A DNA stretch of 64,000 nucleotides from Eledone cirrhosa. Lineage: Eukaryota. The notes below the pieces were generated by a model, which saw nothing but the letters and a program-made list of their open reading frames with translations, ran no database searches and was not told the origin of the DNA. Both the position numbers and the translations under genes were made by a program. Where the stretch lies: contig OZ024741.1 in NCBI GenBank assembly GCA_964016885.1, positions 29,946,001 through 30,010,000 of the forward strand, read 5' to 3'. Positions 9,313-53,414 of this stretch are shown piece by piece (the first letter of the stretch is position 1; each line of letters begins with the position of its first letter).

Positions 9313-9472
9313 AGGTATTTTGTGTGTCATTATAGACAATGCTCTACTAATGCTGAAAGCCATACTAATTCGACAAGTCCAAGCCTAGCCTGTCTGCACA
9401 TCACTTCGTATAGTCATAACAACGACACCAATTTATACATGTGTACTTCTGCGTTCACAGATTGATTTTTTT

Positions 9473-9523
9473 AGTTTCAGAAGATCCCGTTAAGGGTGAA
9501 AGCAGCGATTCTTTGCTTAAACT
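9473..9523 (+). ncRNA. Hammerhead-like motif with U4A core (CAGAAGA), 5' pLTR of family B
   Basis: AGTTT-CAGAAGA-T-CCC(gttaa)GGG-T-GAAA-GCA(gcgattctt)TGC-TT-AAACT; all three stems pair. Confidence 0.7.
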
Positions 9524-9660
9524 TTAATCTGTTATTTTAATAAATAGTTGCTCTACGGTTCTTATATATTTGATATATATTATCCTTATCGATCCCTCTT
9601 TGGATTTTAGTCTTCAAATTTATTATTATTACTTGAGCACTCTATTGACTTATATTCATC

Positions 9661-11581
9661 ATGCAGAAAAAAACATCTGAATATTTCTACAAAGAACATA
9701 CCCGTACCAAGCAAGAAAACATACCTAACATTCCTGATAGAGAAAACAGACGCGTTCATTAAAAGGTTGCGTTGGCGTGCCTTTTATTTCGATAATCATG
9801 GAAAAGCGGACAACACACAGGATAAATTTGTGTTTAAAACTCTCAATAACCCTCCGAGTAACCCAGCATTGCTACCCTTTGAAAATGATGTCCTGGAACT
9901 CATACGGAGTATCAAATTTCGCAATAGAAGCAATTCCTTCCAGCAGGACCTCAAGAATAGAATTCATTCTGTTAAGGATTCTAATGCCGTTATGTCAACC
10001 AGTTATGTCAATCGAAATCAAGTGGAGCGCAGCACTTGCCATCAACTGCTACATAATGCTGTAACTAAGGATTACCGTAAAACTAATCGCAGCGTCATTA
10101 ATGATATCAATGATGCTGGGTTTAAAATCACCTCTGATCTTAACATTCTGGCCCCGACTGAACCTCTGGACCCTATTTCTCCCCACTTTACCCGGAAAGA
10201 TCACAAATCCAATTTCCCGAACAACCCCTCTATTCGGCTTATTAACCCTACGAAATCCGATTTAGGTAGACTTAGTAATAGGATTTTAGAGAGAATTATA
10301 CATGTAATTAGAAGTTTGGCCCCTCTTGCACTGTGGAACAATTCTTTCGCGATGATTGATTGGTTCAACGGCATATACAACAAGGAACATTGCCGTTTTA
10401 TCCAATTCGACATCAATAATTACTACTCCTCCATCACTTTACCACTTCTTCTTAGAGCTATCAATTTCGCTAAAATTTCAGAAAATTTCAGAAAAGAACT
10501 CACAGCCTTCTTTAAAGGCTTCAACCTCTCCATACAGGTTGAGGCCAACCTCTCGGTCGTTAATTACCTCGACGTTATCCTCAATTTGTCGAATGGCTTG
10601 CACTACCCGTATAGGAAGCCGAATGATATGCTTAATTACATAAGTCAGCATTGTAACCATCCTGCCAGCATAACCAAGAATCTGGTAAGAAATGTTTCTT
10701 TGAGGCTTTCCCGTCAATCTACAAACAAGCATATTTTCACCGACCATTACACATATTACAATGACGCTCTTGCTCGGAGTGCATTTGTCTATAAGGTAGC
10801 ATATACAGAGTAGAGTATGGGAATAGATATAGGAAAAATAGATCCCGACGCATTATATGGTATAATCCACCATATAATGGAGGTGGCCACATCATTAGCT
10901 AAGATCTTTCTCTCCCTTATTATGAAGCATTTCCCCCAGCACATACATATACTCTTTTACTCTTTTACCTGTTTCAGCCATCCGGCTGAGGCCATGCTGG
11001 GGCACATAGTAAACTTTTAATAGAAATACCATTAACATTTCTTATTCTACGACTCCTAACCTTGCACATAACATCACAGCTTCAAATTTAGCTAAACTAC
11101 CTAGCCGTAGGAACACGTTCTACCCTGTAGCTAGTACTAACTGTAATTGTAGGAATCGGGATGATTGCCCCCTATCCGGGAAATGCCTCTCTAGTAACGT
11201 TGTCTACAAAAGTAAGGTTAAAACACTCAGGTGCCGTAGGGCCTACAGAGGTTAACCGCCAATAGATTCAAGCAGCGTCTTTACATGCATACCCATTCTT
11301 TTCTTAACCCTTTAAGAAGGAATATGACGTCACTTTCAGCTTATATCTGGAGTCTAAAACACAACCACACCCAATATAAGTTACACTGGGAGATCCTAGC
11401 TAAGCCTAGATCGTATAACGGAAATAAAAGACCATGTGACCTCTGCGCCGCTGAGGCCCTGGAAATACTCTACGCCACAGACCACATCTTAAACAAAAAA
11501 TTTGAGGCAATTTCGGCTTGTAAGCATAAATTGCACAAAACTTTCTTGTATTACAGCTCCACATTATACCCTAAAGTATAG
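9661..11581 (+). pseudogene. PLE ORF (RT with deleted catalytic core + Cys-rich linker + GIY-YIG), frameshifted
   Basis: KDHK..IRLINPTKSDLG, IQFDINNYYSSI, NYLDVILNL..PYRKP, CNCRNRDDCPLSGKCL, TSLSAYIWSLK..CDLC. Confidence 0.85.
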
Positions 11582-12490
11582 CACGAACAATACGCGGATA
11601 TTTTACGTCTTGATGTGGTAGCTAAGTATATGTTATGTTTATAACATTACTTATTTATATAGGTAAGTATATATTACATGTATGTTTTGTGAAGGTACGT
11701 ATACTTTCTCGTACGTATATTTGCTTGTATATGTTATAGGCGTATATCTTATATTATATATAGTTACATGTGCATATGGGTTTTTTATGTGTATACGTGC
11801 GTTTTGCGTCTGTGTGAGTATGCGGGTTCGCACGTATGTACGGTGTGTGTGTATATGTGTACTTTGTGTTTTGGTTGACGTAGGTTTAGCGAACATATGT
11901 GTATTTACATGTAGGTATGTGTGTGCGCGCCTTATATATGTATTTATGTGTGTATATTTATATACGTTTATATAATTAAATGTATACACGCACACACACA
12001 CACACACATATATATATTTTTAAATATATATTTTTATGTGTATTTGTTGTATACGTTCGTATGTGTGCGGGTACAGGCGTTGCGTGGGTTCTGCATGTGC
12101 GTGTTTTTGTGTACGTGTTTGCATTTGCATACCCATGGCGGGTGTTTTCGTGGATGCATGTGTATGTACGTATATGGATGCGTGCATGTATATATTTATT
12201 TTTTGTTGATTTCAATTACCTCTGTAATTTATTTACATTATTCTTAACTCTGAAACCGAGAATCAATCGGTTTCCTAAATAGAATATTAGTCTACGACTT
12301 CAGTTATACCATAAACGTGATTTTGTCTTTGCGTGTAATTGTTTCCACCGCTCCAAATAATGACGTATATTCGTTTTTTCCGTTCTTTGCCATGGAACGT
12401 TTCCATGAATCTAAGTATCTTCTTGCTGTCTTTCTTCAGTTGCAACGTTTTTCGAAATATTTACTTCTGCGTTCACAGATTGACTTTTTT

Positions 12491-14893: not shown

Positions 14894-16790
14894 AATGATT
14901 CCCACTTAGAAACAACCCTGAGATAACTATCAAAGAAGCCGATAAAGGCAGTACTTTTGTCATTATGAATAGGACCCTCGCACTTAACATTTTAGAAAAC
15001 AACACATACTATGAAAAAACAGAAAACTACAAACACACCAAAACAATGGGGAACCTTTTGACCTTACTGAATAAATACCGCAACAGCTTAACCACAAAAG
15101 AGTTTAACTATATAAGCCACTTTAAATGCAATACAAGCTCTTTTTACGGCTTACCGAAACTCCACAAATGTAAACCCATAAACGATGCATGTGACACCTC
15201 AACCAACAATTACATTGAACTAACACCACCAGAAGACCTAAAATTCAGGCCAATTGTAGCAGGCCCTACATGTGAAACCCACAGACTTAGAAACTTTCTG
15301 GACATACTACTGAAACCCTTTCTACAACATATACAGAGCTATATACGAGATGACCTTGACATGCTGAAACACCTCCCTAAAACATTAAGTGCAAATACAA
15401 TTCTTGTCTCCTTTGACGTAATAAACCTCTACACAAACATACCCCACAACTATGGAATAACAGCAGTCCAATACTGGCTTAACACACACCCATCAGAAAT
15501 ACCGACACGCATCAACACAGATTTTATCACTGACAGACTCCGCTTTATCCTACAAAATAACTACTTCACATTCAATGGTTCAACATACAGACAAGTATGA
15601 GGTACGGCAATGGGCACGAAAGTAGCACCCACATATGCCAACCTAGTCATGGGATTCCATGAACAACAAATATACAGTCAGTCCCTTCTCTTATTTGGAG
15701 ACTCTTTCCACACACACCTCAAAGCCAATTGGAAAAGATATCTAGACGACTGCTTTATCCTATGGCAAGAAGACATGAACTCACTTAATACGTTTCAAAA
15801 CATGATAAACAACATAGATAATAACATACAATTCACAATGGAATCCAATTCTAAGGAATTAGCCTTCTTGGATATTCTCATCTCTGTAATAGACGGGAAA
15901 TTAGATACAGATATATTATATAAACCCACAGATTCCAAGCAATACCTCTTTTTCACATCAAGTCACCCAAAACATACAAAACTTAACATTCCTTACAATT
16001 TGGCCAAACGTATATGTACCATAGTATCAGATCCACCTAAACGGGAGCAAAGACTAAAGGAACTAAAAGACACCCTTATCTTAAGAGCCTTTCCACTTGA
16101 AATAATCAACAATGGAATAGACAGGGCAAAACACCTAAATCCCCATCAACTTAACAATCCAAAACAGAAAACCACACTAAACACCCTGCCATATGTATCC
16201 ACTTTCAACCCCAGAAATACCGAAATGTTTGATCACCTACACAAAAACCTCCCCATCCTACTTAAAGATGTAAAAATGAAGTCTATTCTTGAAACACACA
16301 ATATCCTTAAAAGTAAAAGACAACCCAAATCACTTAAACGCATTCTCACTGGACCAAATATACCCAAACCAATCCTCAACCCTACAGTTACCAAATGTGG
16401 TAGAACAAACTGTGGAACGTGCCTCTACCTCACTGAAGGACAAACATTTACATTCAAAGATGGCCAAACATTTACAGTAAAAAACAATTTCACCTGCAAC
16501 TCGGAGAACTTGATTTACGCAATAACCTCCGGTGGGTGCAAACACAACTACATAGGACAGACGGGCACCTCATTACGCAAAAGAATGACCATCCACCGCC
16601 AACAAATCCGGGACGCTAACACAAGAAAAATCCCCTTGAGCAGCCATATTGCGAACTGCGCAGGAATAACACTACCCAACTTTAAAATCTTCCCCTTCTA
16701 CAAGTGCTCAGATTCGTTCACACAGCAACAAAGAAAATCTATTCCTTAACAAATTTAAACCAAAACTAAATGGGTTATCACCCCAATAGA
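14894..16790 (+). pseudogene. PLE reverse transcriptase + GIY-YIG endonuclease with one in-frame TGA (15598-15600) and a terminal frameshift
   Basis: EADKGS, FYGLPKLHK, FRPIVAG, SFDVINLYTNIP, GTAMGTKVAPTYANL, RYLDD, FLDI..YKPTD, CGRTNCGTC, LIYAI..YIGQTG..RKRM..H. Confidence 0.95.
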
Positions 16791-18936: not shown

Positions 18937-19329
18937 ATACCTTCCTGCTAGATTGTTGAACGTATATACTTACCTTATGCATATTAACGGCTGAGTAGCC
19001 CAATTTGCATATCGAGTGAGTTAATCGGCCGGGTGCACCGAAAACGATAAACGGAAAAAATGAAACGAAATTTCATTTCCCACTCTTAGTACGGCTGTTA
19101 CTTAAATATAAGTATGTACACGTACATACATATATGTATACGGACGTACAGTAGTATGTATATATATATACATACATGCACACATATATATATGTACGTA
19201 TGGATTCACCAAACATTTATTATAATGCTCGGTGTGTTTGTAAACAAACATCCCGTATTAAGCCGTTAATATCAGCCGTTAATATGCATAAGGTAAGTAT
19301 ATACGTTCAACAATCTGGCAGGAAGGTAT

Positions 19330-19372
19330 ACGTTGCTGACGATAGCTAATAAGCTTGAAACTAGTACAGCAT
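19330..19372 (+). ncRNA. Canonical type I hammerhead ribozyme (inverted copy)
   Basis: acgttgCTGACGAtagctaataagcttGAAActaGTAcagc. Confidence 0.88.
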
Positions 19373-19788
19373 TCCTTTGTCAGTGTTGAACAAACGAGCA
19401 ACGATGGTTGCTAGACCCTACGGCTTAATACGGGATGTTTGTTTACAAACACACCGAGCATTATAATAAATGTTCGGTGAATCCATACGTACATATATAT
19501 ATGTGTGCATGTATGTATATATATATACACATACTATTGTACGTCCGTATACATATATGTATGTACGTGTACATACTTATATTTAAGTAACAGCCGTACT
19601 AAGAGTGGGAAATGAAATCTCGTTTCATGTTTTCCGTTTATATATATATATTTATATACATAGATACATACATACACACACACACACATATTCCTATTGT
19701 TTTCTCTTCTCTTATATTTTTGTCATATGCTGACTGGACACTTTCTTGTTTACAAATGTTTTTAGGCCTCATATCATGTTACCTTATT

Positions 19789-19850: not shown

Positions 19851-20055
19851 CATATACGGATCTTTTTTAACCATCTTTTAATTTATTCTTTATATACACT
19901 CCAGTTCTACCAACTGCTGAGTGCTACTTATTTGATATATGCATAGTATTATTGTTCTACCATATTATTCACCTCCTACATTAATCTGCTCCTTGATTGT
20001 TTGAGCGCTTACTCTTATATCGGATACTATTTATGGTCTCTACTTCTATTATAAC

Positions 20056-22646
20056 ATGGATTACTACAGCATCACACCTTCACTTACAGACATACCTATT
20101 CTGGGAAAAACTGAATACACAAAACTTTTGATAGAAAAAACGGACTCTTTCTTGCGAAGGCTTAGATGGATCACATATTTCCATGACCAGCGCATAAAAG
20201 GAAATTTTTTAGAACATAATAAGCTCGATTTATTATTTAACTCCAGAAGAAATCCTCCATTTAATAAACACTTAGCATATTTTGAAAATGAATTAACTAA
20301 AATTATACGAGCACTTAAATTCAAAAGAAACCCTTATCAAGGCCACGGACACCTTATCAACCTTAAAATAAAATTAATTGTTTCTACTATTTTGGCACAA
20401 GGCCAGCAATTACCCAGTACATTACTGGTACTTTATTTTATCGACCCCGTAAGGATGAAAGGCAAAGTTAAACTCGACGGGATTTGAACTCAGACCGTAA
20501 AGGGACGTAACTATGCTGGATATCATGGCGTCCGACCCTCTACCGATACTGCCAATTCACCGCCCTTAAGAATAAAATTAATGACCTTAATTCTTCTAAA
20601 AACGTTTTAGTTCATTCTGACAAAACAAATAATTTATATGGCTTAAGTAAGGATAAATATAATAACCTTATCGTTAAGGAACTAAGAAAAAATTATTGCA
20701 AAACCACCCACAATAATCTTGAGTCTATTAATTTCGAAGCATATGAGATTATTACCAAACTTGGTATCGGGAAAAAAACAGAACCCTTCTTCCCAAGAAT
20801 TCAGAGGAATAATCTGAAAGATCACAAAACAAATTTTCGAACTGACTTGCCTGTAAGATTAATTGCCCCTTCTAAATCTGACCTGGGGATTGTTAGTAAA
20901 TCCATCTTGGATAGAATTATCCCACAAGTTTGCGCTAATTCTCAATTAAATTTAGGGTCGGGTTCTTCTGATGTGTTAGACTGGTTCAATGACCTGAATA
21001 ATAAAAATAAACTAAAATTTATTCAGTTAGACATTGTTAGTTATTACTCTTCTATCTCTCATTCACTCCTTAACAAGGCTCTCTCATATGCGTCTAAATA
21101 ATCGGACATCACTACTGATGAATTGAAAAACATTCTCACTGCTAGGAAAACCATCATGGAATTTAACAATGAATATTGGACAAGAGCTGATACTTCCAAC
21201 AATTTTGACATCGCCCTGGGTTCGTCGGATTCAGCGCAATTGACAGACTTGGTTGGAATTTTCATCTTGAACTCTTTAAATCGGAACATTCCTCAACTTC
21301 GCGGTGGAATATATCGTGATGATGCCATTTTTACCGTCTTAAATTGTAACAAAGTAAACCTTAATATTATTAAGAAAAATATACTTGAATTATTTAACCA
21401 TTTTAACCTAAAAATAGAATTTGAGAATAAGGATAAATTAGCAAATTTCCTAGATACATCCCTTAATCTAGATACCGGCCTATATTATCCATACCATAAG
21501 GATAACGAGAACCTAAATTATGTTAACTTTAAATCAAACCACCCTAATAATGATAAAACTGCTATAGTCAGAAGTGTTGAAAATAGAATTTCTAATTTAT
21601 CCTCTAATAAACATATATTCGATGCAAATGCCAACTACTATAATAATGCGTTATCTAGGGCTGGATATCCAGACAAAATTAAATACACTAAGGATAATAA
21701 TCTTGGCAGAACTTATAGTAATGTAGCAAGAATACCACTAACATAAAGAGGAGACCTAGATATAAAAAATATAATTTGGTACAACGTTCCCTTCTCTCTT
21801 TCACTTATTAGTAATATCCCTAAATTATTTTTTAGGGCTTTAGATAACAGCTTCCCCCCTTCACATATTTATAGCAATATTTTCAATAACCATACCATTA
21901 AATTCTCATGTTTCACGACTTCCAACGTTTCACAAATTATCTCTAGACATAATTCTAAAATATTAAATAATAACTCATATGCATCCAACCATGAGAGTCA
22001 TAATAATAACACTCTAAGGCCCGACGTCAATGTAAACTCTAGGCAAAATAATTTAAATATAAATACCACGTCAAACGTATCTTTGAGGAATACTTCAAAT
22101 AGTAATGTAAATCAGGAAACTTTATCACTTCCTTTAGTGAATTCCATCACCCCAGTTCCTATTATAAATAATCCTGGGCCACTGGTAAATAACTCTGTTA
22201 ATAATCTTAATCATAAATGCAACTGCCCTATTAGAACTAATTGTCCTCTTAGTAATTTCTGTCTCGATGAAAACTTAATATATGAATATAAAGTGGTAAC
22301 TTATACCAATACCTATACCTTCATTGGCTCTATTTCTACTTCTTTTAAAGCAAGACTCTATAACCATTCTTCTACATTTAAATATCCACTTAAAAGAACC
22401 AGCACTGCACTCTCAGAACTTATTTGGTCCTCAAAAGACAAAAACATTAATTACGAAATCTCTTGGTGTAAAATTTTCAACGCTTTACCTTACTCCAACG
22501 CTTCCATATCTAAGGTCTGTAATTTATGTCTAGCTGAAAAATTTACCATTATCTCGAATTTCAACTCTTTAATAAATAGACGTATGGACTTATTTGCTCT
22601 CTGTATTCATACATCTTTTAAGACCTTTCACAAAGTATACAGCTAA
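20056..22646 (+). pseudogene. PLE RT (YRDD catalytic motif) + Cys-rich linker + GIY-YIG; SINE-disrupted with stops
   Basis: LIEKTDSFLRRLRW, KDHK, RLIAPSKSDLG, IQLDIVSYYSSI, ALGSSDSAQL, GGIYRDDAI, NFLD, CNCPIRTNCPLSNFCL, LIY..FIG, CNLCLAEK. Confidence 0.92.
20379..20563 (-). mobile_element. Full-length SINE S1 inserted into the PLE ORF, with TSD
   Basis: A box tggcagtatcgg and B box gagttcaaatc on minus; TSD aataaaattaat at 20367-20378 and 20571-20582. Confidence 0.9.
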
Positions 22647-24201: not shown

Positions 24202-24317
24202 CTTTTCGACGGAATTACTTCATTTATATTTATATATATATATATATATAAATAGATATATATATATATATATATATATATGTGTCTGTGTGTGTGTGTG
24301 TATGTATATATGTATGT

Positions 24318-24724
24318 ATGAGATGACGCCTTAGCCTTTGTCAAGGCAGAATTCTAGGAGAAGGACAACTCTGATATAACACCTGCAAACCTGATGGTAT
24401 CCAATGATGTTGACTAGTTCTTCTTTTTGGTAAATATCATCTTGGTTAAGAGAGTGGGACTGGCTTTGTGCAGTACCTTTGCTCATTATAATAACTTCAC
24501 GGCACAGGCATTGCTTTATATCTGGAGATCTCTCTGCACTTGTCGTCACATGGTACCATGGGCCCAGCACTGTGTCAATAACTGTCACAAGTGTAGTGTT
24601 TGTACCAGAGTTTTCAAGTCGCTGGCTGGACTAAAAAGTCACACACGTTCAGCGCATCGGTAGGGGTTCTCCTACATGGATGTAAAGTAGTGGCCGTACT
24701 CGAAAACGAGTTGGCAGCCACCAT
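24318..24724 (+). mobile_element. RTE-derived short non-autonomous element
   Basis: ctaggagaaggacaactctgatataacacc, C2H2 finger HKCSVCTRVFKSLAGLKSHTRSAHR*, (TATG)n tail. Confidence 0.75.
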
Positions 24725-24779
24725 GTATGTATGTATGTATGTATGTATGTATGTATGTATGTATGTATGTATGTATGTA

Positions 24780-24965
24780 TATAGGAAAATAATCAGGACC
24801 CCGACGACAGAGCTCAAGCCATTTTGACGGCCAGAAATAGCCGTCGAAAGGGCTTGAGCTCTGCCGTCGGGGTCCTGAATCTTGACTAATACTCACTCTA
24901 CTACCCAAAGTATAGAGTACACTGGTGCGTTATGGTCCACCTGGTTACTTACTGCACTTCCTTTG

Positions 24966-24968
<3 letters not shown>
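24780..24968 (-). repeat. Hairpin-ended 190 bp repeat, copy 2
   Basis: Reverse complement of 18480-18670. Confidence 0.8.
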
Positions 24969-25032
<64 letters not shown>

Positions 25033-25058
25033 TGTAATAAACAACATAAGGCAATTAT

Positions 25059-25117
25059 TTCTTTTACCAGTGGTTTCTTAAAAGCAAACAAATTTTGCTT
25101 TCAATCATCAGAATGAA
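25059..25117 (-). ncRNA. Type I hammerhead ribozyme in a solo pLTR-like fragment
   Basis: ttcatt-CTGATGA-TTGAAAGCAAA(atttg)TTTGCTTTTAA-GAAA-CCACTG-GTA-aaagaa. Confidence 0.78.
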
Positions 25118-25298
25118 GAGATCCTGGTGTATTTATTGACATTGGATTTAAAAAAACAAAAATGTAATCTATATGAAAGTGAGGCTGGAAAAGGAAGGAG
25201 GAAAGGTAAAATAAACACACAAGCACACACACACACACATAATTACATACACACACATATATACATACACATATATATACATACCCACATGCACACAC

Positions 25299-25329
<31 letters not shown>

Positions 25330-25456
25330 TACATACATATACACATACACATATACACACATATATATCAACATATCCATACATACACATATACACAAAC
25401 ACGCACACACACACACATGCATATATATATATATATATATACACAATCATACACAT

Positions 25457-26067
25457 ATGGTGGCTGCCAACTCGTTTTCGAGTACGGCCACTACTTTATA
25501 TCCATGTAGGAGAACCCCTACCGATGCGCTGAACGAGTGTGACTTTTTAGTCCAGCCAGCTACTTGAAAACTCTGGTACAAACACTACACTTGTGACAAT
25601 TATTGACACATAGTGCTAGGCCCATGGTACCATGTGACGACAAGTGCAGAGAGATCTCCAGATATAAAGCAATGCCTGTGCCGTGAAGCTTTTATAGTGA
25701 GCAAAGGCACTGCACAATGCCAGTCCCACTCTCTTAACCAAGATGATATTTACCAAAAAGAAGAACAACTCAACATCATTGGATACCATCAGGGTTGCAG
25801 GTGTTATATCAGAGTTTTCCTTCTCCTAGAATTCTGCCTTGACAAAGGCTAAGGGGTCATCTCTCCCGGTGAAATTGGATGACCATTGACTTTTAAGAGG
25901 TCCTTTGCCCTTTGACAGGTTTTGTTTTTAGTCCTGCAGGATGTCCAAAGTCACCCTCCTCACTAAGAAACCATGGTGGGGTTGCCAGTTTAGTCGCCAA
26001 CGACCCGACCATGAGACAGGTTGTACTGGGATACATGTTACCAGTAGCACCAACTGGTGACCTGACA
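25457..26067 (-). mobile_element. RTE-derived short element, longest copy (about 610 bp)
   Basis: Matches 24318-24724 plus about 200 bp of extra 5' sequence. Confidence 0.8.
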
Positions 26068-26092
26068 TAAATATATACATACATATATATAT

Positions 26093-26503
26093 ACATGGTG
26101 GCTGCCAATTCGTTTTCGAGTACGGCCACTACTTTATATCCATGTAGGAGAACCCCTACCGATGTGTTGAACGAGTGTGACTTTTTAGTCCATCCAGCGA
26201 CTTGAAAACTCTGGTACAAACACTACACTTGTGACAATTATTGACACATAGTGCTGGGCCCATGGTACCATGTGACGACAAGTGCAGAGAGATCTCCAGA
26301 TATAAAGCAATGCCTGTGCCGTGAAGTTTTTATAGTGAGCAAAGGCACTGCATAAAGCCAGTCCCACTCTCTTAACCAAGATGATATTTACCAAACATAA
26401 GAACAAGTCAACATCATTGGATACCATCAGGGTTGCAGGTGTTATATCAGAGTTTTCCTTCTCCTAGAATTCTGCCTTGACAAAGGCTAAGGGGTCATCT
26501 CTC
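26093..26503 (-). mobile_element. RTE-derived short element, adjacent truncated copy
   Basis: Repeat of 25457-25865. Confidence 0.8.
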
Positions 26504-26842
26504 TTACATATATACACACGTACATACACGCACATACATACACACATATATACACGCATACATACGCATGCACAAATATAGATATATGTACACACACCTA
26601 CATTCGCACACACACACATAATTATAAAAAAAAATATAATAATAAAAATGAATATAAAAATTATTATAAAGTTGACAGCGATACAGGCAACAAATAAATG
26701 AACAAACACACGTGGTAGCAATACACACAATTGCACATACACATACATACGTAAAAATAAATACATACACACACACACATACATATACATATACATATAC
26801 ACATACACACACATACACATATACATACACACAATCACATAT

Positions 26843-27356: not shown

Positions 27357-27406
<50 letters not shown>

Positions 27407-27455
27407 CGTAAAATAAGAAAATTTAAAAAGAAAAAAAATGTTTATAAAATTTTAA

Positions 27456-27535
27456 CTCCAACTAATTAGTTTCTGCAATGGGATAAAGACAGTTACGTAA
27501 TGAACCGTTGAGAATTTCATTGCGTCATCAGGGAG
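27456..27535 (-). ncRNA. HHR with long stem II loop (inverted unit)
   Basis: Reverse complement of 27961-28040. Confidence 0.78.
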
Positions 27536-27960
27536 GTCATTCTCAGCCGAGTCTCCAGGCGATGCGCGGACACTGGCGACTCATATAAAAATAATAATAA
27601 TTCGGTAAATGGAACAGCTATCGAGGACTAGATTCCAGCTACTGAAAGTTCTCACTGCCACTGATCATATGGCCGATTCTAAAGAATCAATCACGTGACA
27701 CAGAGGCTGCCAAAACCACTTCTAAAAATTTTTGTTTGGGGGGTGTTAGTAGGCGCTTGTCATCTTACCACCCCATTCCTACTGACTAGCCTCTGTGTCA
27801 CGTGATTGATTCTTTAGAATCGGCCATATGATCAGTGGCAGTGAGAACTTTCAGTAGCTGGAATCCAGTCCTCGATAGCTGTTCCATTTACCGAATTATT
27901 ATTATTTTTATATGAGTCGCCAGTGTCCGCGCATCGCCTGGAGACTCGGCTGAGAATGAC

Positions 27961-28040
27961 CTCCCTGATGACGCAATAAAATTCTCAACGGTTCATTACG
28001 TAACTGTCTTTATCCCATTGCAGAAACTAATTAGTTGGAG
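27961..28040 (+). ncRNA. HHR with long stem II loop, unit 1 (GUU site)
   Basis: CTCC-CTGATGA-c-GCAAT..ATTGC-a-GAAA-CTAATTA-GTT-GGAG. Confidence 0.8.
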
Positions 28041-28513
28041 TGAAAATTTAAGTAAGTTAATTTTTAAAAGGAATTTTTTTTTAAATTTTCTTATTTTACG
28101 TCTTTTATATTATTGTTCTGCATTCTCCTGCATCGAACCACCTAGGTACTATGACATAACCTGTGTATTTGCTGGCATTGGCGTACATCTGTGCGCTTAT
28201 GTTAGTAGATATATTAAATTATCTATATTTATCTCCAAATCACTGATTTGTCGAGCAAACCTGCCAAAACCACTTCTAAAAATTTTTTTTTGGGGGTGTT
28301 AGTAGGCGCTTGTCATCTTACCACCCCATTCCTACTGACTAGCCTCTGCGTCACGTGATTGATTCTTTAGAATCGGCCATATGATCAGTGGCAGTGAGAA
28401 CTTTCAGTAGCTGGAATCCAGTCCTCGATAGCTGTTCCATTTACCGAATTATTATTATTTTTATATGAGTCGCCAGTGTCTGCGCATCGCCTGGAGACTC
28501 GGCTGAGAATGAC

Positions 28514-28593
28514 CTCCCTGATGACGCAATGAAATTCTCAACGGTTCATTACGTAACTGTCTTTATCCCATTGCAGAAACTAATTAGTCGGAG
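28514..28593 (+). ncRNA. HHR with long stem II loop, unit 2 (GUC site)
   Basis: CTCC-CTGATGA-c-GCAATG(37 nt)CATTGC-a-GAAA-CTAATTA-GTC-GGAG. Confidence 0.85.
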
Positions 28594-29071
28594 TGAAAAT
28601 TTTAGTAAGTAAGTTAATTTTTAAAAGGAATTTTTTTTTAAATTTTCTTATTTTACGTCTTTTATATTATTGTTCTGCATTCTCCTGCATCGAACCACCT
28701 AGGTACTATGACATAACCTGTGTATTTGCTGGCATTGGCGTACATCTGTGCGCTTATGTTAGTAGATATAGTAAATTATCTATATTTATCTCCAAATCAC
28801 TGATTTGTCGAGCAAACCTGCCAAAACCACTTCTAAAAATTTTTTTTTGGGGGGTGTTAGTAGGCGCTTGTCATCTTACCACCCCATTCCTACTGACTAG
28901 CCTCTGTGTCACGTGATTGATTCTTTAGAATCGGCCATATGATCAGTGGCAGTGAGAACTTTCAGTAGCTGGAATCCAGTCCTCGATAGCTGTTCCATTT
29001 ACCGAATTATTATTATTTTTATATGAGTCGCCAGTGTCCGCGCATCGCCTGGAGACTCGGCTGAGAATGAC

Positions 29072-29151
29072 CTCCCTGATGACGCAATGAAATTCTCAAC
29101 GGTTCATTACGTAACTGTCTTTATCCCATTGCAGAAACTAATTAGTTGGAG
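29072..29151 (+). ncRNA. HHR with long stem II loop, unit 3 (GUU site)
   Basis: Same as units 1 and 2. Confidence 0.8.
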
Positions 29152-29569
29152 TGAAAATTTAGGTAAGTAAGTTAATTTAAAAAAAAATTTTTTTTTTTTT
29201 AAAATTTTCTTATTTTATGTCTTTTATATTATTGTTCTGCATTCTCCTGCATCGAACCACCTAGGTACTATGACATAACCTATGTATTTGCTGGCATTGG
29301 CGTACATCTGTGCGCTTATGTTAGTAGATATATTAAATTATCTATATATATATATATATTTCGTTTCTGAATTTGTTTAGCAAGACTCTTTATCTGAAAA
29401 CGTGTGTTGGAACCGATATTGTTATACTTTGGAAGGATCATGTTGCCAATAAGAAACACACGCACCAGTAGCTTTCACTTCAATTTATTATAATAAATTT
29501 ATAAATTTAGGAATTTATAAATTTCTGGTTGGTTGGTTGGTTCCACAACCAGATGATTGTTTATATATT

Positions 29570-29612
29570 GTCAAAGTTCTTTCGTCACACATTCTGTGAC
29601 CTCTTCAGTGAC
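29570..29612 (-). ncRNA. Type I hammerhead ribozyme (inverted pLTR, family E)
   Basis: GTCA-CTGAAGA-G-GTCACA(gaatg)TGTGAC-GAAA-GAA-CTT-TGAC. Confidence 0.8.
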
Positions 29613-29970
29613 AGGGGATTCTTTTCTTTGTTTTGTGCCTCTTCTTTGTTCTGTCCTACGCCATCTTGTTTTTGTGTTTGTGTTGTGTGCTTAGTTTGCG
29701 CATGTGATACATCCGGATGTATGTGTGTGTTTATATTCGTTTATTTATTTGTTTATTTATATGTTACTGGTTGGTTGTGTGTTCTATGTGCGTGGGTGTT
29801 TTCATTTTGTCCTTAATTGTAAGTTGTGATGTTGCTGTTCCACTCTTGTTTTCTATTTAATTTTGGTTGGAGTTCATTTATGTTTATTGCCTCTGTGATT
29901 TGTCTAAACATTGCATCTTTTCTGTCTGTAGATTCTATTTTTATTTCTATGTTCTCTAATTTACCCTTAT

Positions 29971-32560
29971 GTTCATAGGGAGACTATGGACAGAGAAAAT
30001 AATCAGGACGAACACACAGACACACAAAATAGAGTAGATAATAACAATGAGCCAGAGGAAAGAGACAGGAGTAATAATGAGAGACATAGAAACAACCATG
30101 AGGCTGTTGGTGGAAATAGAAATAGAAACAACACAACTAACAATAACAATAGCACTAGTACACATAAAGCAGCAGCCTGGAACTCTACTTTTTATAATCC
30201 TTCCGATAAGTCATTCGACCTGCGACGAGTCCACGCCACGACTTTAGCTTTTAACAAACGCACGCAATTGCCATCGCAGGTCGAAGAACAAACAGAAGCA
30301 CAATTTAGTATAGCTAGATCTAAACTTAGAAATATTATAGAACAGTATAGCAAGAAACATAATAGAATGGAGGCCCAGCAACTGGGAGAAAAATCTGCAA
30401 ATGGCTTGCGTAAGCTTATGCAGCGCTCGCGTAATGGAGAGATAACATGCTTTCCAACAGACAAGTCTGGCAGAATGTCTGTTGACAGTCTGCCAAACTA
30501 CATCCAGGCAATGCAACCCCACATCACTAACACAAGAGAAGTAACACCACAAGAGCATGAGGATAGGGAAAAAAGCCCTCAATGCCCATATGATGATGTG
30601 GACAAATATAATGCAGCCCAACAAAAGGACTGCCAACAACTTCCAGGCTTGGAACAATGACGTGCCAGCGTTGTATAGGCTTCGAAAAGACCATAAAACG
30701 AGCAATGACCCTGTCACAGGACCACCAATACGGCCAGTCTGTGGAGCTAACATTGCTAGTAACTACAGACTTTCATACTTCCTCTCCCTGATAATACGCC
30801 ACATCATTGAAATGTCCCCAGATGTATGTGACAACACGGAGGACCTCCTAAGCAGAATCGGTAAGAGTAACCGATCTAGGGACCTAACAAACTGCATAAT
30901 AGGTAGTATGGATGTTGTGTCCCTGTATCCATCTATTGACGTGGATTTTGCTGTGGAGAAATGCGTAGAAATGATCAGTGAGAGCAATATTGAATTCTGT
31001 GGGATTGATACCAGTGAGCTGGGACTCCTACTTTAACTTACCTATAGTAATAATTATCTAGATACATATGGCCTTAGCAACCTGTGCCCTACAAGACCAG
31101 CAAGAGGCAGACCACCTACCATTACCTCAATGGCCAAGAAAACCCACACAGATAGATGGTGGACCAGAGCCATACGGGTGGACCAGAGCCATACGGACCC
31201 CCGAAAACCACGATGAACTAAAGAAAATGATTGCACATGCGGTGGGGGCCAGCATAAAATTAACCCTTAAGGAACATATGTTCAAATTTAATGGAAAAAC
31301 ATATGCCCAAGAGGAGGCGGCAGCCATTGGTGTTAGCATTGCGTGCGACATAGCTAACCTATTCATGGTATGGTGGGACAGTAGACTTAAACTTAAACTT
31401 AAAGAACAATTAGAAGACCCTTAACCCTGACAATGTACTTCCGCTACGTTGATGATATAAACATCGTAGTTAAAACAACCCCACTAGAGAAAAATCAGGA
31501 GTTAGAGAAAAATACAATGGAAAGCATCCAGCAAATAGCTAACTCCATCCACCAGAGTATTAGAGTTACTATAGACTACCCAAGCAAACACCCCAACCAT
31601 CGATTACCTGTACTAGACAAAGAGCTCTGGTTAGATACCATCAATAACAAAATCAAATCCTCCATTCCCATTATGCCAAACCCATGACTTCCAAATACCT
31701 GATCAACCGAAACTCAGCTGTTTCGGACCATACAAAAATCAACCTACTTTTTGCGGATTTGGTACGGGTGATGAAAAACGTGTCCCGCATGTGCAACCCC
31801 GAAGAACTAGAGAGACACATACAACACTTCATCCACCGTATGCAGTTCTCTGGTTACAATCAGAGAGATACAAACAGAGTATATAGAGGAGCCAGAACCA
31901 AATGGGAAAAAATGGTAAATAACGACACAAATGGGACCTGCACCTTGTATAGGAGCAAATTTTGGAATAGAATAGAAAGAACTAGGAATAAGGCTAATAG
32001 AATAAACTCATGGTATGATAGCAATAAATACCATAGTGTAATGTTCATCGATACAACCCCTAGAGGTGAATTAGCTTACACATTTAGAAGGGCCATAGAT
32101 AAACATAAACTCAATATTAAGATAGTAGAAAGACCAGGTACCTCCATAAAAACACTTATTAGCAATACATACCCTTTTCAAAGACCTCCCTGTATAGATA
32201 AGAAATGTATAATCTGTAAATGAAGCCCCCATATTAACTGTAAAACTAGAAATGTAGTATATAGCATAAGATGTACTGATGGACAATGTAGAGATAAAAA
32301 TATAGTGTACATAGGTGAGACAGCTCGTAGTATAGGGGAACGGATAAATGAACACTGGAGAGACCTTCAAGATAGTCAAGAATCATCTGTACTCTACCAA
32401 CATGCTAAAATAGAAGATAAGGGTAAATTAGAGAACATAGAAATAAAAATAGAATCTACAGACAGAAAAGATGCAATGTTTAGACAAATCACAGAGGCAA
32501 CAAACATAAATGAACTCCAACCAAATTAAATAGAAAACTTGAGTGGAACAGCAACATCAC
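29971..32560 (+). pseudogene. PLE RT + GIY-YIG, multiply frameshifted
   Basis: PTDKSGRM, RKDHK..PIRPVCG, GSMDVVSLYPSI, AAIGVSIA..IANLFM, RYVDDI, LPVLD, CIDKKCIIC..VVY, YIGETARSIGERINEH. Confidence 0.92.
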
Positions 32561-32773
32561 AACTTACAATTAAGGAGAAAATGAAACACACACGCACATA
32601 GACCAAACAACCAACCAGTAACATGTAAATAAACAAATAAATAAACGAATATAAGCACACAGAGATACCCGGATGTAACACATACGCAAACTAAGCACAC
32701 AACACACACACAAAAACAAGATGGTGTAGGACAGAACAAAGGAGAGGCACAAAAACAAAAAAAATAATCCACA

Positions 32774-32816
32774 GTCACTGAAGAGGTCACAGAATGGGTG
32801 ACGAAAGAACTTTGAC
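32774..32816 (+). ncRNA. Type I hammerhead ribozyme (3' pLTR, family E)
   Basis: GTCA-CTGAAGA-G-GTCAC(agaatgg)GTGAC-GAAA-GAA-CTT-TGAC. Confidence 0.82.
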
Positions 32817-32963
32817 AATATATAAACAATCACCTGGTTGTGGAGCCAAACAACCAGAAATTTATAAATTCCTAAATTTATAACTTTATTATAATAAATT
32901 GAAGTGAAAGCAACTGGTGCGTGTGTTTCTTATTGGCAACATGACCCTCCCAAAGTATAACAA

Positions 32964-33004
<41 letters not shown>

Positions 33005-35945: not shown

Positions 35946-37147
35946 ATGGTAAAGAAAGATGGACTCAGGGTCAGTTCCCCCCCCCCCCCCCGACCTAGTA
36001 AAATGGAGCATCGGCGCCTATGCACCATGTCTTATCGGACGATTAACATAAAATCGCGCCGAGTGGAACGGGCATCCGAGTCTCAAATCCAAAAAGCTTT
36101 AGGACATGTGTGGGCAAAAAAACCCCCACATCAGACGTGGGCAGGAATATGGAACCGTGGACGTGTTCTTTGGAACACCACAAGAGGCCAGAGAACACTC
36201 CATGGCCCCATTAACACTCGTCCCAAGCTATTGTGGCCAGAGACTCGTGAGAATCAGGGTGACCCACGTTCCACCGGCCATCGAAATTCCATGGCTAATG
36301 GCTGCCGTCCTCACCGGCATCGAGGCCAACACCAAGATAATCTAAATAGCAAAAGAAAAGCAGGAAAACTGGTCCGGATCTGGCATAGAGCTCCTGATGC
36401 AAGCGGACCAAAAAAGCATTGAGGAGATCCCAGAGGTAATGGACCTCACTGACGGCAGCCACCTCACCGTAATCGTCGAGGGCAGAAGGCCTAAGTGTGT
36501 CATTTGTGGTGAAGGAACCCACCTAAGGGCTTTCTACCCTCAGGCTAAAAGGTTGAGGCCACCTCTCTTACCCACTCCAGTGACTCAACCATCAACACCA
36601 CCAGCAGCAGAAACGGCAGCAACAACTGTAGCAGCAACAACAGAAGCAACTGGAACAGCAACAACCCCAGCAACAGTACCAAAACCACCACCACCCAACG
36701 CGCTAGAACTAGCACCAGCGCCTACACTATCCACCACACCACACCAAAACCAACATCTGTCGCGGATTTTCACTCCCCGACCTATCGCAACTGGAAACAG
36801 ATTGTGACGACGAGGAGTAGGAAACGGTATCAGGAAAAAAGTAAAAAAGAAAAAGAAGCCAAAAAAGAAAAATCCTCTTCCTTCCCCCTCCAAAAAACAA
36901 AATACAGAGGGAAACAAATAAACTATCAAACAAAAAAGTTAGGACACCTATGCCACCATCCACACCAACATCACCAACGATATCACCACAAACACCAACA
37001 CCATCACCATCATTAACCCCAACACCACCATCACCAACACCACAAAAGTCACCAAAAAGCGAAACAGAAACAAACCCACAACAAAGACAAACAAAACAAA
37101 ACAAACAAAACGATACACACTACACATTAAATTTGAACAACCAATGA
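35946..37147 (+). pseudogene. LINE ORF1 (zinc knuckle + Pro/Thr-rich tail), frameshifted
   Basis: VIVEGRRPKCVICGEGTHLRAFYP (degenerate CCHC). Confidence 0.7.
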
Positions 37148-37399
37148 TTACACTACATCCAACACAACACCAGCATCACAGAAAAAGACTACACAACACC
37201 CCAAATGTTCACACCACCTCCACACATACAAATCACTCGCATCACACAGAAAACGTACACGACACTAAAACAAAAAATCCCCAACAATCACTTCCGACAA
37301 GCACTCTCCAGGAGAATTTATAAGGACATCCTTCCGGAGGAGGCCACAAGCAGTAAAACGGATGGAGAAACCATCCTTCTTCTACGAGAAGTAAGGTAA

Positions 37400-40340
37400 G
37401 TGGTCTTTTCCATCTTTTCCACTCCATTTCAACATGACTTCACTCAGAATAGGCAGCATAAATGCGCATGGCTTGGGGTCGTCATGGTCACTAAACAAAG
37501 ATGTAGTGGCTATCAGCGAGACCAGAATGTAGATAGAGTATTTTGTAGGGAAATAGATAGGTCTAGCATAGGCTGTCCACAATTCAAGATAGTCAGCTAC
37601 ACGTACCACATATTCGTGATCTGTGTGCTTGACTTAGATAGGCTTCATAGATGAGGACCCGGCTACTGGAAGCTAAATGCGTCTTTACCAGCGCGCAAGG
37701 CCTACAGAGACCGGATTAGCGAACTAGTTAAGCGGGCGTTGATGGGGACCATCGTCAACAACAAGTGGTGGTTTGCTCTGAAAAGAGCGATTAGAATAGA
37801 GTCCATTAGGTTTAGTAAGGCTTTAGCAATAGAGAAAAATAGAGCAGACGAAGAACTAGTTAGAAAATTAGATGAAGCGCTTAGCAAAGGCATCGCGACC
37901 GACGTACTTGAGGCGAAATTTAACCTTGACCAATTCTTCAATGCAAAGCACGAAGGCTGCGTTGTCAGAGCTACGGTGCGTGCTCTCAGACACGAGGGGA
38001 CGAAAGCCGTTCAATGGGCCCGAGTGGCGGAGGCGCGTCGTGGCAACAAAGCCACGATCCGGTCTTTGGTGGACCACGACGGGCGCATGCTACTCGATCC
38101 CAGGCAAATGTGTGAAGCTTTTCAGCGACACTTCGCACAGCTGTTCGAGGCAGCGGCGGGCCGGATTGAGAGATGGTCGTTAGTGTCTACCTCGACGGAC
38201 TGCCGCGGCTCTCGGCCACTGAGGCAGAATGTTGCGAAAAGCGTATAACAGCCGCTGAAGTACGGGAGGCAATGACAGGCTGCACAAAGAGTAAATTGCC
38301 TGGTTTGGATGGTCTGCCCTATGAACTTTACGTACAGATGCCAGACTTGTTCGGAGGCCTCTTGGCGGACGTCTATTGCAACTGGCAACAGAACGGGAAA
38401 ATTCCCAGCTCTGTGAGCCGAGGAGCTGTGGCGCTGCTGAGAAAGGTTCCGAACAAGGGGGATAACATAGATAATTTCAGGCCCATAACTCTGCTAAACA
38501 CAGAGTTCAAGATTTTGGCCAAGGTGCTAGCAAAGAGGTTGGCGCTTGTCGTTGGTGGTCTGGTCGGAGAGGCGCAGACGTGCGCCAATCCCGACAGATC
38601 ATCCACGACAACCTCCACCTCATGCGATACATCGTAGAGAGGGTAGCTAGGGAACCTGGCACGGGTGGGTCATTGATCAATTTAGATCAGTCGATAGCTT
38701 TCGATAGGTTCGACTATCGTTACCTGGCGGCAGTCCTGAGGGCGGCTGGCTTTGGGCCGGTCTTCAGAGGCTGGATCGCTGCCATGCACAGCGACAATTG
38801 CTCTGTGGTGAGAGTGAACGGTCACCTTTCTGAACCGCTCAACATCATGCGCTCGGTCCGCCAAGGATGTCCCCTCTCGTCCCTCTTGTACGTATTGACT
38901 GTCGCGCTATTACTGCACAAACTGGATACGTTAAGGATGATCCCGCGCGAACTAGGATGCGGAAGATCCGTGTCAGCATATGCGGACGATGTCACCGTAG
39001 TGGTGTCGAACGCCAAAGACATCGAGGCGATAGGCACTACACTAAGAGAATACGAAGCGGTGACACGAGCAATGATCAACCAGAAAAAGTCAGTGGGCCT
39101 GCAGCTCGGCATCTGGAGTGGCAGGTCCATGCCGTCCAATAGCGTCGTCGGGCGCTGGAAACACGGACCAATTAAATTAAAAAAAGGGGTCTGGTTCGTT
39201 CTGGACTTCCAGACGAACAAAAATTGGGACGAGGTGACGAGGTATCTCTCACCCAGAAATGGGGGGGAGAGGAAGCTATCCCTGAAATGTCGAGCGGAGG
39301 TGGCTCACGCGTACATCGCGTCCGTCATCTACTACCGCCTGGCCGTCGTACCTTGTCCTCAGCCCCGCCTGACTGCGCTGGAGCGTTTGCTCTTTCGCTT
39401 TTTGTGGAAAGGACGCGCTCCGATGGTTAGGCGGTCCATCTGATGTCAACACCCGCTACGTGGATGGCTGGGCATGCCGTGGCTGATGATGCGCAGACAC
39501 GCACTAAGGCTACGACATACTCACCTCTTCCTCGACGGTGTTCAGGTGTGGTCGCCGTTTCCTAAACACGTCTTTCCCCAGCTCGTCTCCTTGACGGAGC
39601 TGCAGTCCTGTGTCAATCGAAGACCGAGAGGGAGCGCTTTGAGACTGGAATGTCTTCAGGCGCTCACAGCCTTCGCCCAATCGGGCAATGTGATCGGTTG
39701 AAACTCCACCTTGGCATTCTATAGAGGATTAGTCGAGGGGAAGAGCGATGACGTACTTGGAGAAACTCTAGGCGTCGACGAAAATTAACTAGCCAATCTC
39801 TTCGGAAGGACTTTCGGGCCGGGGCCTATGGACAACTTCCAGAAATCCCTGGCCTGGCAGTGCTACCGAAGAGCTTTGCCAGTTCGGTATAAACTCAACA
39901 GGCATGGAGGTGCCATCAGCCTGGCATGTCCGAGATGCGCGCAGAGGGACGAAACCTTCCTCACGTACTCGTCCAGTGTCCGAGCATTGCTGACTTGTGG
40001 GTTAATGTCGAACACCTGCTGTCACGTGTAGGACGGATCTAACTATCAGCTGAGTCCATCGTGAGGATTGCCCCGCTCTCTTCCTTTAGCCGGGAAGGGC
40101 AGGCAGTTTTTATCTGTCTGGTGGCCATGGCGAAAGAGATAGTATGGTGGACGCGTTTGAAAGGGCTGAAGACGAGCACTTACCTCTTAGGTGATGCCCT
40201 GATTAACTTTTTCAAATTTCATTTGAAAAGGAAAATCAGGGTATAGAGGGAAGTTCTCTCTTCCCACGATTTTGTTGAAAGATGGGTGAGAGAAGCAAGT
40301 ATGGCCCGAGTGAATGGGCCTACTCTGAGTATGTGTCTGT
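37400..40340 (+). pseudogene. LINE ORF2 (endonuclease mostly deleted, RT, C-terminal Cys motif)
   Basis: GYWKLNASL, KLPGLDGLPYE, NFRPITLLNTEFKILAKVLA, LDQSIAFDR, VRQGCPLS, YADD, CPRC..DET. Confidence 0.92.
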
Positions 40341-48766: not shown

Positions 48767-48869
48767 ATATATATATATATAATTAGAAAGTGTACAACAC
48801 ACAATATAACTACTCCATTACCAAATGTTTTTGGATCATAGACGATAATAATATACGTCTGGATCAGCC

Positions 48870-50830
48870 ATCAGACAGATCGGTCGTCAGATAGCTCTCC
48901 TACCCTGGACATCTCCCTCTATACCGTCATCCCTCATGATGACGGCCTCCGCGCTCTCCAACATTTTTTAGATTTACGCCCTACCCCTTACCCCAGCACT
49001 ACCACCCTTCTCCGTCTTGTTGAGCTTGTTCTCACCCTCAATGGATTTTATTTTTCGGGTGAATTTTATCAACAGATCTCTGGGGTAGCGATGGGAACCA
49101 GAATGGGTCCAAACTATGCCAACTTGTTTGTTGGCTACGTCGAAGCCCAGATCTTCTCCCGGTACGCTAGACCGACTTCTGAGCTATACGGTCGTTATAT
49201 CGACGAATGTATCAGCGCAACCTCTCTATCACGAGAACAGCTTGACTGTTTTCTTTCTTTTGTCCAGTCTTTCCATCCTGCTCTCATTTTCACTGCCTCC
49301 GTCTCCGATTCTTCTGTCGCTTTTCTAGATATCTCTCTATCTATTAATCACTCGCACCATACCCTCCCTACTTCCATCTTCATTAAGCCAACAGACACCG
49401 AATCTTACCTCGACTTGACCTCCTCCCATCCAACCGGCACCAAACACTCCATACCCTATTCCCAATTCCTCCGTCTTCGTTGACTCTGTATCAAGGCCGA
49501 CGATTTCGAAACCCATTCCCTTCGCACGGCTTGCTGCTTCATCCAGCGTGGATATCCCCCCACCGTCTCACCTCACCCTCGCTCCCAACACCCGTGTTCC
49601 TTTCCCTCTCACCTACCACCCCATCACCCTACCACTCCGGCGATATATCCTCCGTTCCTCCGTATCCTCTCTTCTAACCCCGTCACTTCTTGCTTTTTTC
49701 CAAACCCACCCATTACTGCTTTTAAGAGCTCCCGCAACCTCCACGACCTCCTGGTTCGCAGTTCCATTTCCTCCTCTCCCACCACTCCACCCGGCTCTTA
49801 TCCTTGTTCCCATACCCGTTGCAACACTTGTCCCTTTATTTCCACCCTCACCACTCTTACAGGCCCTAACGGGTCTTTCTGTATCCGACATTCCTTCACT
49901 TGCACATCCACCCATGTAAACTATGCCCTCCGGTGTTCCCTTTGCGGGTTTTTATATATCGGACAAATGGGACGCCGTATGGCCGACCGTTTTGCCGAAC
50001 ATTTAGGGACATCAAATTCGGTTTGGATACTCCTGTCGTCCGTAATTTCTATTCTCCTGGTCATTCTCCTATACATGTTTCCGTCCTGAATGTCCTTTCA
50101 CATCATGGATCACAGGTCTCCGGCACCAGGGCTGAACAAAGTCTGATTCACCGCCTTGAGTCCTATGCCTCTCTTGGAATTAACTCACCTCCCCAATTTC
50201 TCTAATTATCACACCCCTAGATTCCTATCGCTTTCTCTTGATCAGCAGCAGCTTCTCTTACAACTAATACACGCCGACTATATATGCACACTCCACTTTT
50301 CCCTTAACTGCTCTGTATACACACATACACAACCTTACCTTCGTACTTACATGCAAACATACTCTTTTACTCACATATACACACACGTTTCTTCTTAGCT
50401 TCGTACGGACGTATAATAACACACCCATACACACACACATACACACACAAGCACACATACAAACACACGCTTACGCATGTGTACAAGTATAGCTCTTTTT
50501 ACAAAACGTTTTTTTTCCATTTCAGGTAGACGCGCTCCATCATCCACTTTTCTAAAAAAATAAATCATTCACAAAATGTTTTGCAAGAGATAAATCATTC
50601 ACCAACAGTTTTGCAAGAGATGTCAACATGAATAGACTTGTTATTTTTATCTAAAGACATTCTTCCCAATTACATCCCGCCCGTCCTCTCAATCTATCTT
50701 ATTTCTCATTCTTTCTTCTGAGGAAGGACTAGCGTCCGAAACGTTAAGACCCTCTTTTTGCTATAACAACCGTTAACCTAATATATCCCTACCATATACT
50801 GTACTGATTGTGTTGTTATTTCTGTTCAAC
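48870..50830 (+). mobile_element. 5'-truncated Penelope-like element family F (RT + GIY-YIG pseudogene about 48900-50205, then pLTR)
   Basis: DISSLYTVIPHDDG, QQISGVAMGTRMGPNYANLFVG, RYIDEC, FLDI..KPTD, CSHTRCNTC, YIGQMGR. Confidence 0.9.
50714..50749 (+). ncRNA. Minimal type I hammerhead ribozyme
   Basis: tctt-CTGAGGA-A-GGAC(tagc)GTCC-GAAA-CG-TTA-aga; palindromic AACGTT. Confidence 0.8.
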
Positions 50831-53235: not shown

Positions 53236-53313
53236 TCCCTGATGACGAAAGGCTTCTCCGTACGTTTCTTCGGAAACTATGTTTATTCTCTTTCAGAAAC
53301 TAATTAGTTGGAG
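53236..53313 (+). ncRNA. HHR with long stem II loop; divergent relative of the 27.9-29.2 kb array HHR
   Basis: TCC-CTGATGA-c-GAAAGG(about 36 nt)TCTTTC-a-GAAA-CTAATTA-GTT-GGAG; the downstream 50 bp also matches the array unit. Confidence 0.8.
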
Positions 53314-53362
53314 TGAAATTTTAGTAAGTAAGTTAATTTTTATAATTTTCTTATTTTACGTC

Positions 53363-53414
<52 letters not shown>

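Follow-up and report, generated by a model that had tools for sequence, protein, structure and literature searches.

We find that the tandem array at positions 27398-29345 of the window (the whole stretch of DNA analysed, 64,000 nucleotides) is a real, young member of the known class of non-LTR retrozymes, with a clear Penelope-type footprint. The sequence-only reading had proposed a candidate retrozyme, and a non-coding tandem hammerhead ribozyme (HHR) retroelement with integration of the type of Penelope-like elements (PLEs) is supported by the copies, the HHRs and the insertion footprint. On balance we think it probable that the array is a young insertion of a non-coding, non-autonomous HHR repeat, likely written by a Penelope-type reverse transcriptase (RT)-endonuclease from a likely circular 555-nt RNA: the insertion has two arms and two fixed sites, which suggests that such an enzyme copied both arms from one RNA, likely a circle. 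What is added to knowledge is a counted one-of-each rule for the two ends, haplotype evidence for one template per insertion, and a variant ribozyme; the two fixed ends, their one-of-each pairing, the TA targeting and the haplotype shared by the arms were all absent from the earlier reading.

Layout and hammerhead motif of the array

The array is flanked on both sides by TA runs and is made of an inverted arm and a forward arm (27707-29345), which end outward at a short (S) fixed site on the left and a long (L) fixed site on the right. Its features are as follows.

27369-27401, no strand: (TA)n target, left flank
27398-27708, minus: inverted arm, monomer ~305-553 then 1-~75, with its outer end at the S fixed site
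27456-27535, minus: hammerhead motif in the inverted arm, with cleavage predicted between 27460 and 27459
27707-27708, no strand: head-to-head joint of the arms, with an overlap of 2 nt
27707-28036, plus: 5'-truncated partial unit, monomer 225-553
27961-28040, plus: hammerhead 1, GUU, predicted cut after 28036
28037-28589, plus: full monomer of 553 nt with a strong fold (z -4.6)
28046-28092, plus: hypervariable AAGT and T/A tract, distinct in 130 of 131 copies
28401, plus: monomer 365C, in its subfamily a base private to the window insertion; it recurs at 27648 (minus), 27848 and 28959
28504-28540, plus: predicted pseudoknot between UGAGAAU (28504-28510) and the loop II segment AUUCUCA (28534-28540)
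28514-28593, plus: hammerhead 2, private GUC, predicted cut after 28589
28590-29147, plus: full monomer of 558 nt, G+C 38%
29072-29151, plus: hammerhead 3, GUU, predicted cut after 29147
29148-29345, plus: terminal partial unit of 198 nt, ending at the L fixed site, monomer ~196
29340-29360, no strand: (TA)n target, right flank, common to the array and a separate PLE

Three units and an inverted partial one had been described; the forward arm does carry three HHRs, but it holds only two complete monomers plus two partial ones. The absence of coding capacity holds, the longest ATG-initiated ORFs on the repeated monomer being 27 aa (plus strand) and 29 aa (minus strand), and the monomer fold scores z -4.6 (linear) and z -5.2 (circular) against shuffles. 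Within the hypervariable tract of all copies (28046-28092 in the window), the boundary between the T-run and A-run blocks slides while the block length stays at ~11. This T/A tract was tried as a barcode of the template (edit distance 8.4 within versus 13.8 between loci), but its sequence differs even between segmental duplicates (L015 and L063), which indicates that it mutates at the DNA level, and the idea was rejected. We also observe a conserved, splice-donor-like word, GUAAGU, 12-25 nt past the cut site (window 28050-28060, and across subfamilies), possibly bound by U1.

Each predicted HHR carries CUGAUGA (27965, 28518 and 29076 on the plus strand; 27531 on the minus strand), the stem I pairing CUCC/GGAG and the palindromic stem III GAAACUAAUUAGU (28023, 28576 and 29134, plus; 27473, minus), all as first described, and the predicted cuts after 28036, 28589 and 29147 would yield 553 and 558 nt. 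Both GUU and GUC had been named as cleavage sites, and both exist, but GUU is the family site and GUC at 28589 a private mutation: position 17 is U in 201 of 202 HHRs (118 loci), with 28589 the single exception. Likewise, the description of complete type I hammerheads stands as regards four type I cores, but the core is not fully canonical, for it is not closed directly by G10.1-C11.1; the first G-C pair of stem II sits between an additional C and an additional A (C·A in 198 of the 202 HHRs). PLE HHRs with one more base ahead of G10.1 are known (PMC4209133).

Stem II further contains an internal loop and a second hairpin. Its second pair is formed in 202/202 HHRs (CG 141, AU 41, UA 11, GC 9), and stem I pairs 1-4 are formed in 198-200 of the 202. 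Across 25 representative HHRs, 97.3% of cells pair and double-change cells number 40 versus 14 in shuffles, with 2 of 5 covariation measures not above shuffles; compensatory changes across subfamilies support the predicted fold. Stem III is invariant, in part since it served as the search anchor. As had been suggested from its palindrome, it appears to favour a dimer: computed at 0 kcal/mol as a hairpin and -9 kcal/mol as a duplex, it fits the dimer folding described in the same source (PMC4209133). Loop II may also pair with the strand 5' of stem I, as 5-7 bp are possible in 314 of 340 HHRs, including each HHR of the window, with compensating changes in one subfamily group and one double-change pair among the 25 representatives; we treat this pseudoknot as a prediction, because other segments also give 4-5 bp helices. 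Over the window, Rfam returned no family at gathering score and, at E up to 10, no hammerhead model and chance matches only. The C·A pair at the base of stem II together with the GUU site suggests that cleavage may be slow; among Xenopus retrozyme dimers, only 1 of 9 is reported as cleaved in vitro in a recent preprint (bioRxiv 10.64898/2026.07.22.740005).

A dispersed family and its insertion footprint

A genome-wide count, the check proposed for copy number, gives at least 12,144 exact junction matches in the genome (G000, 3.0 Gb), far above chance: 4,467 to the window-type 21-nt junction and 7,677 to related junctions, with 0 in the reversed controls of both. Complete monomers (n = 93) fall into 18 clusters of 521-559 nt with identity down to 70%, and at least two same-strand HHRs are present in 23 of 54 sampled insertions, with three in the window copy. 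The window also contains a short copy of an older subfamily (53236-53374; stem II GAAAG/CUUUC), which ends at the S site in TA. Metagenome and viral contigs gave no match to the element. The cephalopod host surmised earlier is borne out by the molluscan hemocyanin that the genome encodes: the single stretch compared reaches 647-655 bits with chains 6r83, 4yd9_C and 1js8, which we take to be from squid and octopus, versus 456-502 bits on 8tnv and 3j32, presumably from gastropods.

Some copies form long arrays. On C12 (L263-L268, G000:C12:24461534-24532536), a satellite of pure tandem units, some with damaged cores, spans at least 71 kb; on C28 (L031-L033, G000:C28:45835400-45855930), one insertion and its host flank are amplified into eight higher-order repeats with 2-5 HHRs. 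Both were considered as master sources but found no support, their common variants being nearly all missing from dispersed copies: nine of ten common variants of the C12 array occur in 0 or 1 of ~100 dispersed arms, and the recurrent unit variants of the C28 cluster (391A, 422G, 389C, 298G, 58A and 61A) are absent from dispersed copies, where three rarer ones do recur. Further long arrays may exist, because forward matches exceed reverse ones by 621. The C12 array and C28 cluster did expand at the DNA level, as would be expected of a satellite spread by DNA-level duplication whose ribozyme motif was a chance or decayed feature. As an explanation of the dispersed copies we give this almost no credence: their flanks are unrelated, their 3' ends are fixed while the 5' ends vary, their stems are compensated, and the end pattern refutes it.

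Insertions end outward at one of two TATA-like monomer positions, ~75 (S) or ~196 (L), where they merge with (TA)n, and the flanks of listed copies show a (TA)n target bias. The stretch from S to L, ~120 nt, is the PLE-type tail. For the window copy, the proposed match to PLE-type integration stands, but the inverted part is not a start: at 27398, its outer end occupies one of the two fixed 3' positions of the RNA. A uniform recount of two-armed insertions (n = 121) gave 58 L/S, 45 S/L, 2 L/L, 1 S/S and 15 with an unclassified end, several of the latter, window copy included, being S/L by eye and a few duplicated loci still being counted. Thus, 103 of the 106 two-armed insertions with both ends classifiable combine one S and one L end, where free choice would give about half. 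Three insertions break the rule (L005, L212 and L280). The neighbouring PLE likewise has one longer arm, and in a third family the two independent cases observed are both L/S. PLEs are known to carry a tail at a single end (PMC8557442, PMC3846280), and the anole PLE is described as nicking both strands and extending them from a pair of internal RNA sites, by which its tail is defined (PMC11167929). Most joints between arms link unrelated monomer positions, and either arm can be longer; six two-armed joints have an identical 5' position in both arms. Gaps of at least 12 nt between opposite arms (n = 14) contain true filler only in L207.

The copies could also be truncated pLTRs of an ordinary ORF-bearing Penelope-like element, since their architecture is the same as that of PLE ends, no autonomous partner was found among the PLE loci profiled, and the marker matches listed were 100 of 106. 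At those 100 listed matches (1.5-2.5 kb of flank), however, no ORF-linked copy of the window subfamily was found, so that the case made at the outset for an independent retrozyme, and not an ordinary pLTR, holds among the listed places. Among 57 consecutive insertions on C1, arms that exceed one unit run on into a further unit rather than an ORF, and the 5' ends (n = 340) join the opposite arm in 239 cases, lie in microsatellite in 50 and in mixed sequence in 51, these last sharing no common ORF junction. A monomer profile detected no homologous PLE in the window or in 24 PLE loci, the protein check being sensitive only to PLE families resembling the window's own; relaxed patterns for the HHR region retrieved only extra subfamilies or mutated copies and no ORF-linked relative. 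A pair of copies on C3, 2.9 kb apart and resembling a pLTR-ORF-pLTR unit, was set aside as a duplication inside a TA satellite. We consider the pLTR explanation very improbable and already largely refuted.

PLE sequence stands at the 5' end of an arm in two insertions. Between the arms of L207 lie pieces of the PLE family found at window 9.5-11.6 kb, which has many 713-codon open frames; both arms run into different parts of it, and one of the pieces ends at a 5' point common to several copies of that family. In L253, the arm runs on into RT sequence that is 83% similar to the neighbouring PLE. The two captures point to different PLE families, with one case each. A 12-nt match of the S-end motif to the 3' region of one PLE family was discarded as within chance.

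Template and proposed route of insertion

Opposite arms of an insertion differ by 1.4%, versus 6.6% under random pairing (19 loci; a value this low in 0 of 10,000 draws), and the haplotypes of loci recur from unit to unit and from arm to arm. The window subfamily is star-like: its 46 dispersed insertions, counted once three loci with a different haplotype (L274, L279 and L283) had been removed, lie at a mean of 0.9% from their majority, a value that still takes in a few pieces of those three loci, and no unit-specific variant is common to arrays in register. The private 365C is present in 4/4 overlapping pieces of the window insertion and in no other of the 46 dispersed loci; similarly, the two arms of L023 share 481T, and the two pieces of L059 share 429T. 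A few loci are composite: L080 is a clear haplotype chimera, L005 joins two subfamilies, and two variants of L278 are common to only two of its three units, which points to later local duplication or post-insertion homogenisation.

We propose that a read-through transcript with at least two same-strand HHRs would self-cleave at GUU, probably as a dimer via the palindromic stem III, and that the monomer would then be ligated. Judging from the footprint, both (TA)n strands are nicked, presumably by the Penelope-type enzyme, and each nick would prime cDNA at its own internal site, ~75 or ~196 nt past the cut, both TATA-like. In the copies observed, synthesis mostly passes the cut site with an exact junction and stops at varied points; the cDNA ends would then be joined head-to-head with little or no microhomology. 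Some copies, as the long arrays indicate, expand later, locally and at the DNA level, into satellites.

The arms cross the cut site with an exact junction in most passes, the chance of passing a whole unit being ~0.27, and a cut linear monomer alone therefore cannot explain them. There is no peak of 5' ends exactly at the cut: six arms end at 545-553 or 1-5, and most of these retain bases upstream of it. Stops are enriched at monomer 1-46 (25 versus 9.8 expected) but spread over the A/T tract, and this excess could mask run-off from linear monomers.

The same non-autonomous, PLE-mobilised element might also have been copied from an uncut linear multimer of a young homogeneous array, with the HHR trimming flanks or acting elsewhere and no circle needed. 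Exact read-through of the junction is expected of such a template, a young homogeneous source array read in this way would give the same star pattern, and long arrays do exist (at least 71 kb on C12); for the anole PLE, PMC11167929 reports uncut RNA as the dominant substrate in vitro and insertion even by HHR mutants, and the predicted probability of stem I in the circular fold of our unit is only 0.02. Against this, an uncut multimer would shorten with each generation unless fed by long arrays, the chance of passing one unit being ~0.27, yet multimers and a compensated HHR persist in all 18 clusters, at identities down to 70%; dispersed copies lack nearly all variants of the C12 and C28 arrays; and 365C in four of four pieces requires a monomer-to-multimer step somewhere. 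We hold the multimer to be unlikely but of appreciable weight. A circle accounts for array regeneration and for selection on the ribozyme, and given the class, in which retrozymes of mussel, coral and axolotl are shown to be circular (PMC7229834), we regard it as fairly probable.

Another route to the inverted arm is fold-back or self-priming, possibly on an antisense template, with the one-ended tail produced by endonuclease resolution and not by two primings. This has been proposed for PLEs (PMC3846280 and PMC8557442), would explain the shared arm haplotype directly, and suits the six joints with the same 5' position in both arms; yet most joints link unrelated positions with either arm the longer, both outer ends lie at TATA motifs merging with the target, and the arms of L207 enter different parts of one PLE family. 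It seems to us decidedly improbable. Copying of both arms from one, likely circular, RNA can be extended, tentatively and at less than even confidence, to a general rule for PLEs: a dimeric RT would prime both target strands on one circular RNA, with a separate and obligatory start site for each strand, and roll through the junction, and the variant type I HHR (C·A, loop II pseudoknot to the 5' flank) would be off in the circle and on in the multimer.

Neighbouring elements and known systems

The window holds several other elements. A separate broken PLE (29361-32966) lies in the same TA run as the array, with RT-like frames interrupted by stops and frameshifts and inverted terminal arms of ~570 bp, one exceeding the other by ~55 nt and both bearing a minimal CUGAAGA hammerhead (32778, plus; 29608, minus); it has ~21,000 candidate places in the genome and no sequence in common with the 555-nt unit. 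The PLE family at 9313-11620 and at L300:1456-3594, which we take to belong to a Hydra-like clade, is recently active and TA-targeting, with copies 95-99% identical, several of which begin at one fixed 5' point; a canonical HHR was not found in its copies, and short inverted pieces lie at 12.5-13.0 kb, 33.0-33.25 kb and 52.3 kb. Other PLE-like RT frames, also broken, occur at 14899-16749 (with a weak GIY-YIG match in 15601-16749), 20005-22646, 48842-50089 and 1709-2393, and a broken LINE-like element with an RVT_1 domain at 36346-39443. TA-rich DNA at 24231-26590 and 19060-19630 holds other inverted-repeat families, which may likewise be non-autonomous elements of PLE type; one of them includes a 638-bp direct repeat (25429/26067).

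In the literature covered on cephalopod hammerheads and retrozymes, octopus Penelope and twin priming, which leaves most subscription papers, Repbase and Dfam outside its range, neither the family nor the pairing rule is described. The route of animal retrozymes from RNA to DNA is proposed, not demonstrated, and the tandem, inverted, one-tailed Penelope layout is still unexplained. The family offers thousands of short, readable insertion products, two mapped start sites and a 555-nt substrate, and with a PLE protein of the same genome, rolling-circle copying and two-site priming become directly testable.

In twin priming of L1, two target strands prime on one RNA and an inversion results; unlike these, the arms of the window family copy overlapping sequence from two fixed starts, and each can exceed one unit. 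The plant LTR retrozyme has type III HHRs in its LTRs and a unique middle, whereas the window family has type I HHRs and whole-unit tandems.

The novelty suggested by the sequence-only reading was overstated, as non-LTR retrozymes and their proposed mobilisation by PLEs are already published (PMC7229834, PMC4209133 and bioRxiv 10.64898/2026.07.22.740005). Metazoan non-LTR retrozymes (Cervera and de la Pena 2020, PMC7229834), in the available sections of that paper, resemble the window family in their tandem non-coding units with one type I HHR each, low G+C (38% here, under the retrozyme bound of 45%), thousands of dispersed copies and a PLE as proposed mobiliser. Those sections give units of ~170-400 nt and a described range of 150-450 nt, against 553-558 nt here, a length inside the 51-972 bp of the preprint by Li et al.; they present retrozymes that differ from the window family's HHR with its long stem II, C·A base and predicted pseudoknot; and they describe no insertion ends or two-armed layout but do show circular RNA, whereas the window family is known from DNA. 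The elements of Li, Clavereau and Pollet 2026 (bioRxiv 10.64898/2026.07.22.740005) are of the same class, non-autonomous PLE derivatives. As far as the preprint is accessible, it samples no mollusc and links its elements to PLEs by co-occurrence and pLTR homology, whereas our link is the insertion footprint, with no homologous pLTR found for the window family.

With EN+ PLEs (PMC8557442, PMC3846280, PMC11167929 and PMC4209133), the family has in common the inverted 5'-truncated arm, the one-end tail and the (TA)n targets, as well as two internal RT start sites with the HHR upstream of them (PMC11167929, PMC4209133). It differs in lacking an ORF, in a tail of ~120 nt versus 30-40 in EN+ PLEs, in start sites that have TATA in common with the target, the start of the anole element being at a site not homologous to its target (PMC11167929), and in the one-of-each rule counted here (103/106). 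The MRC1-like elements of Chlamys (PMC8557442) are similarly ORF-less, multicopy, head-to-tail PLE derivatives; they are, however, algal, mostly without a canonical HHR, and similar in sequence to their own autonomous partners.
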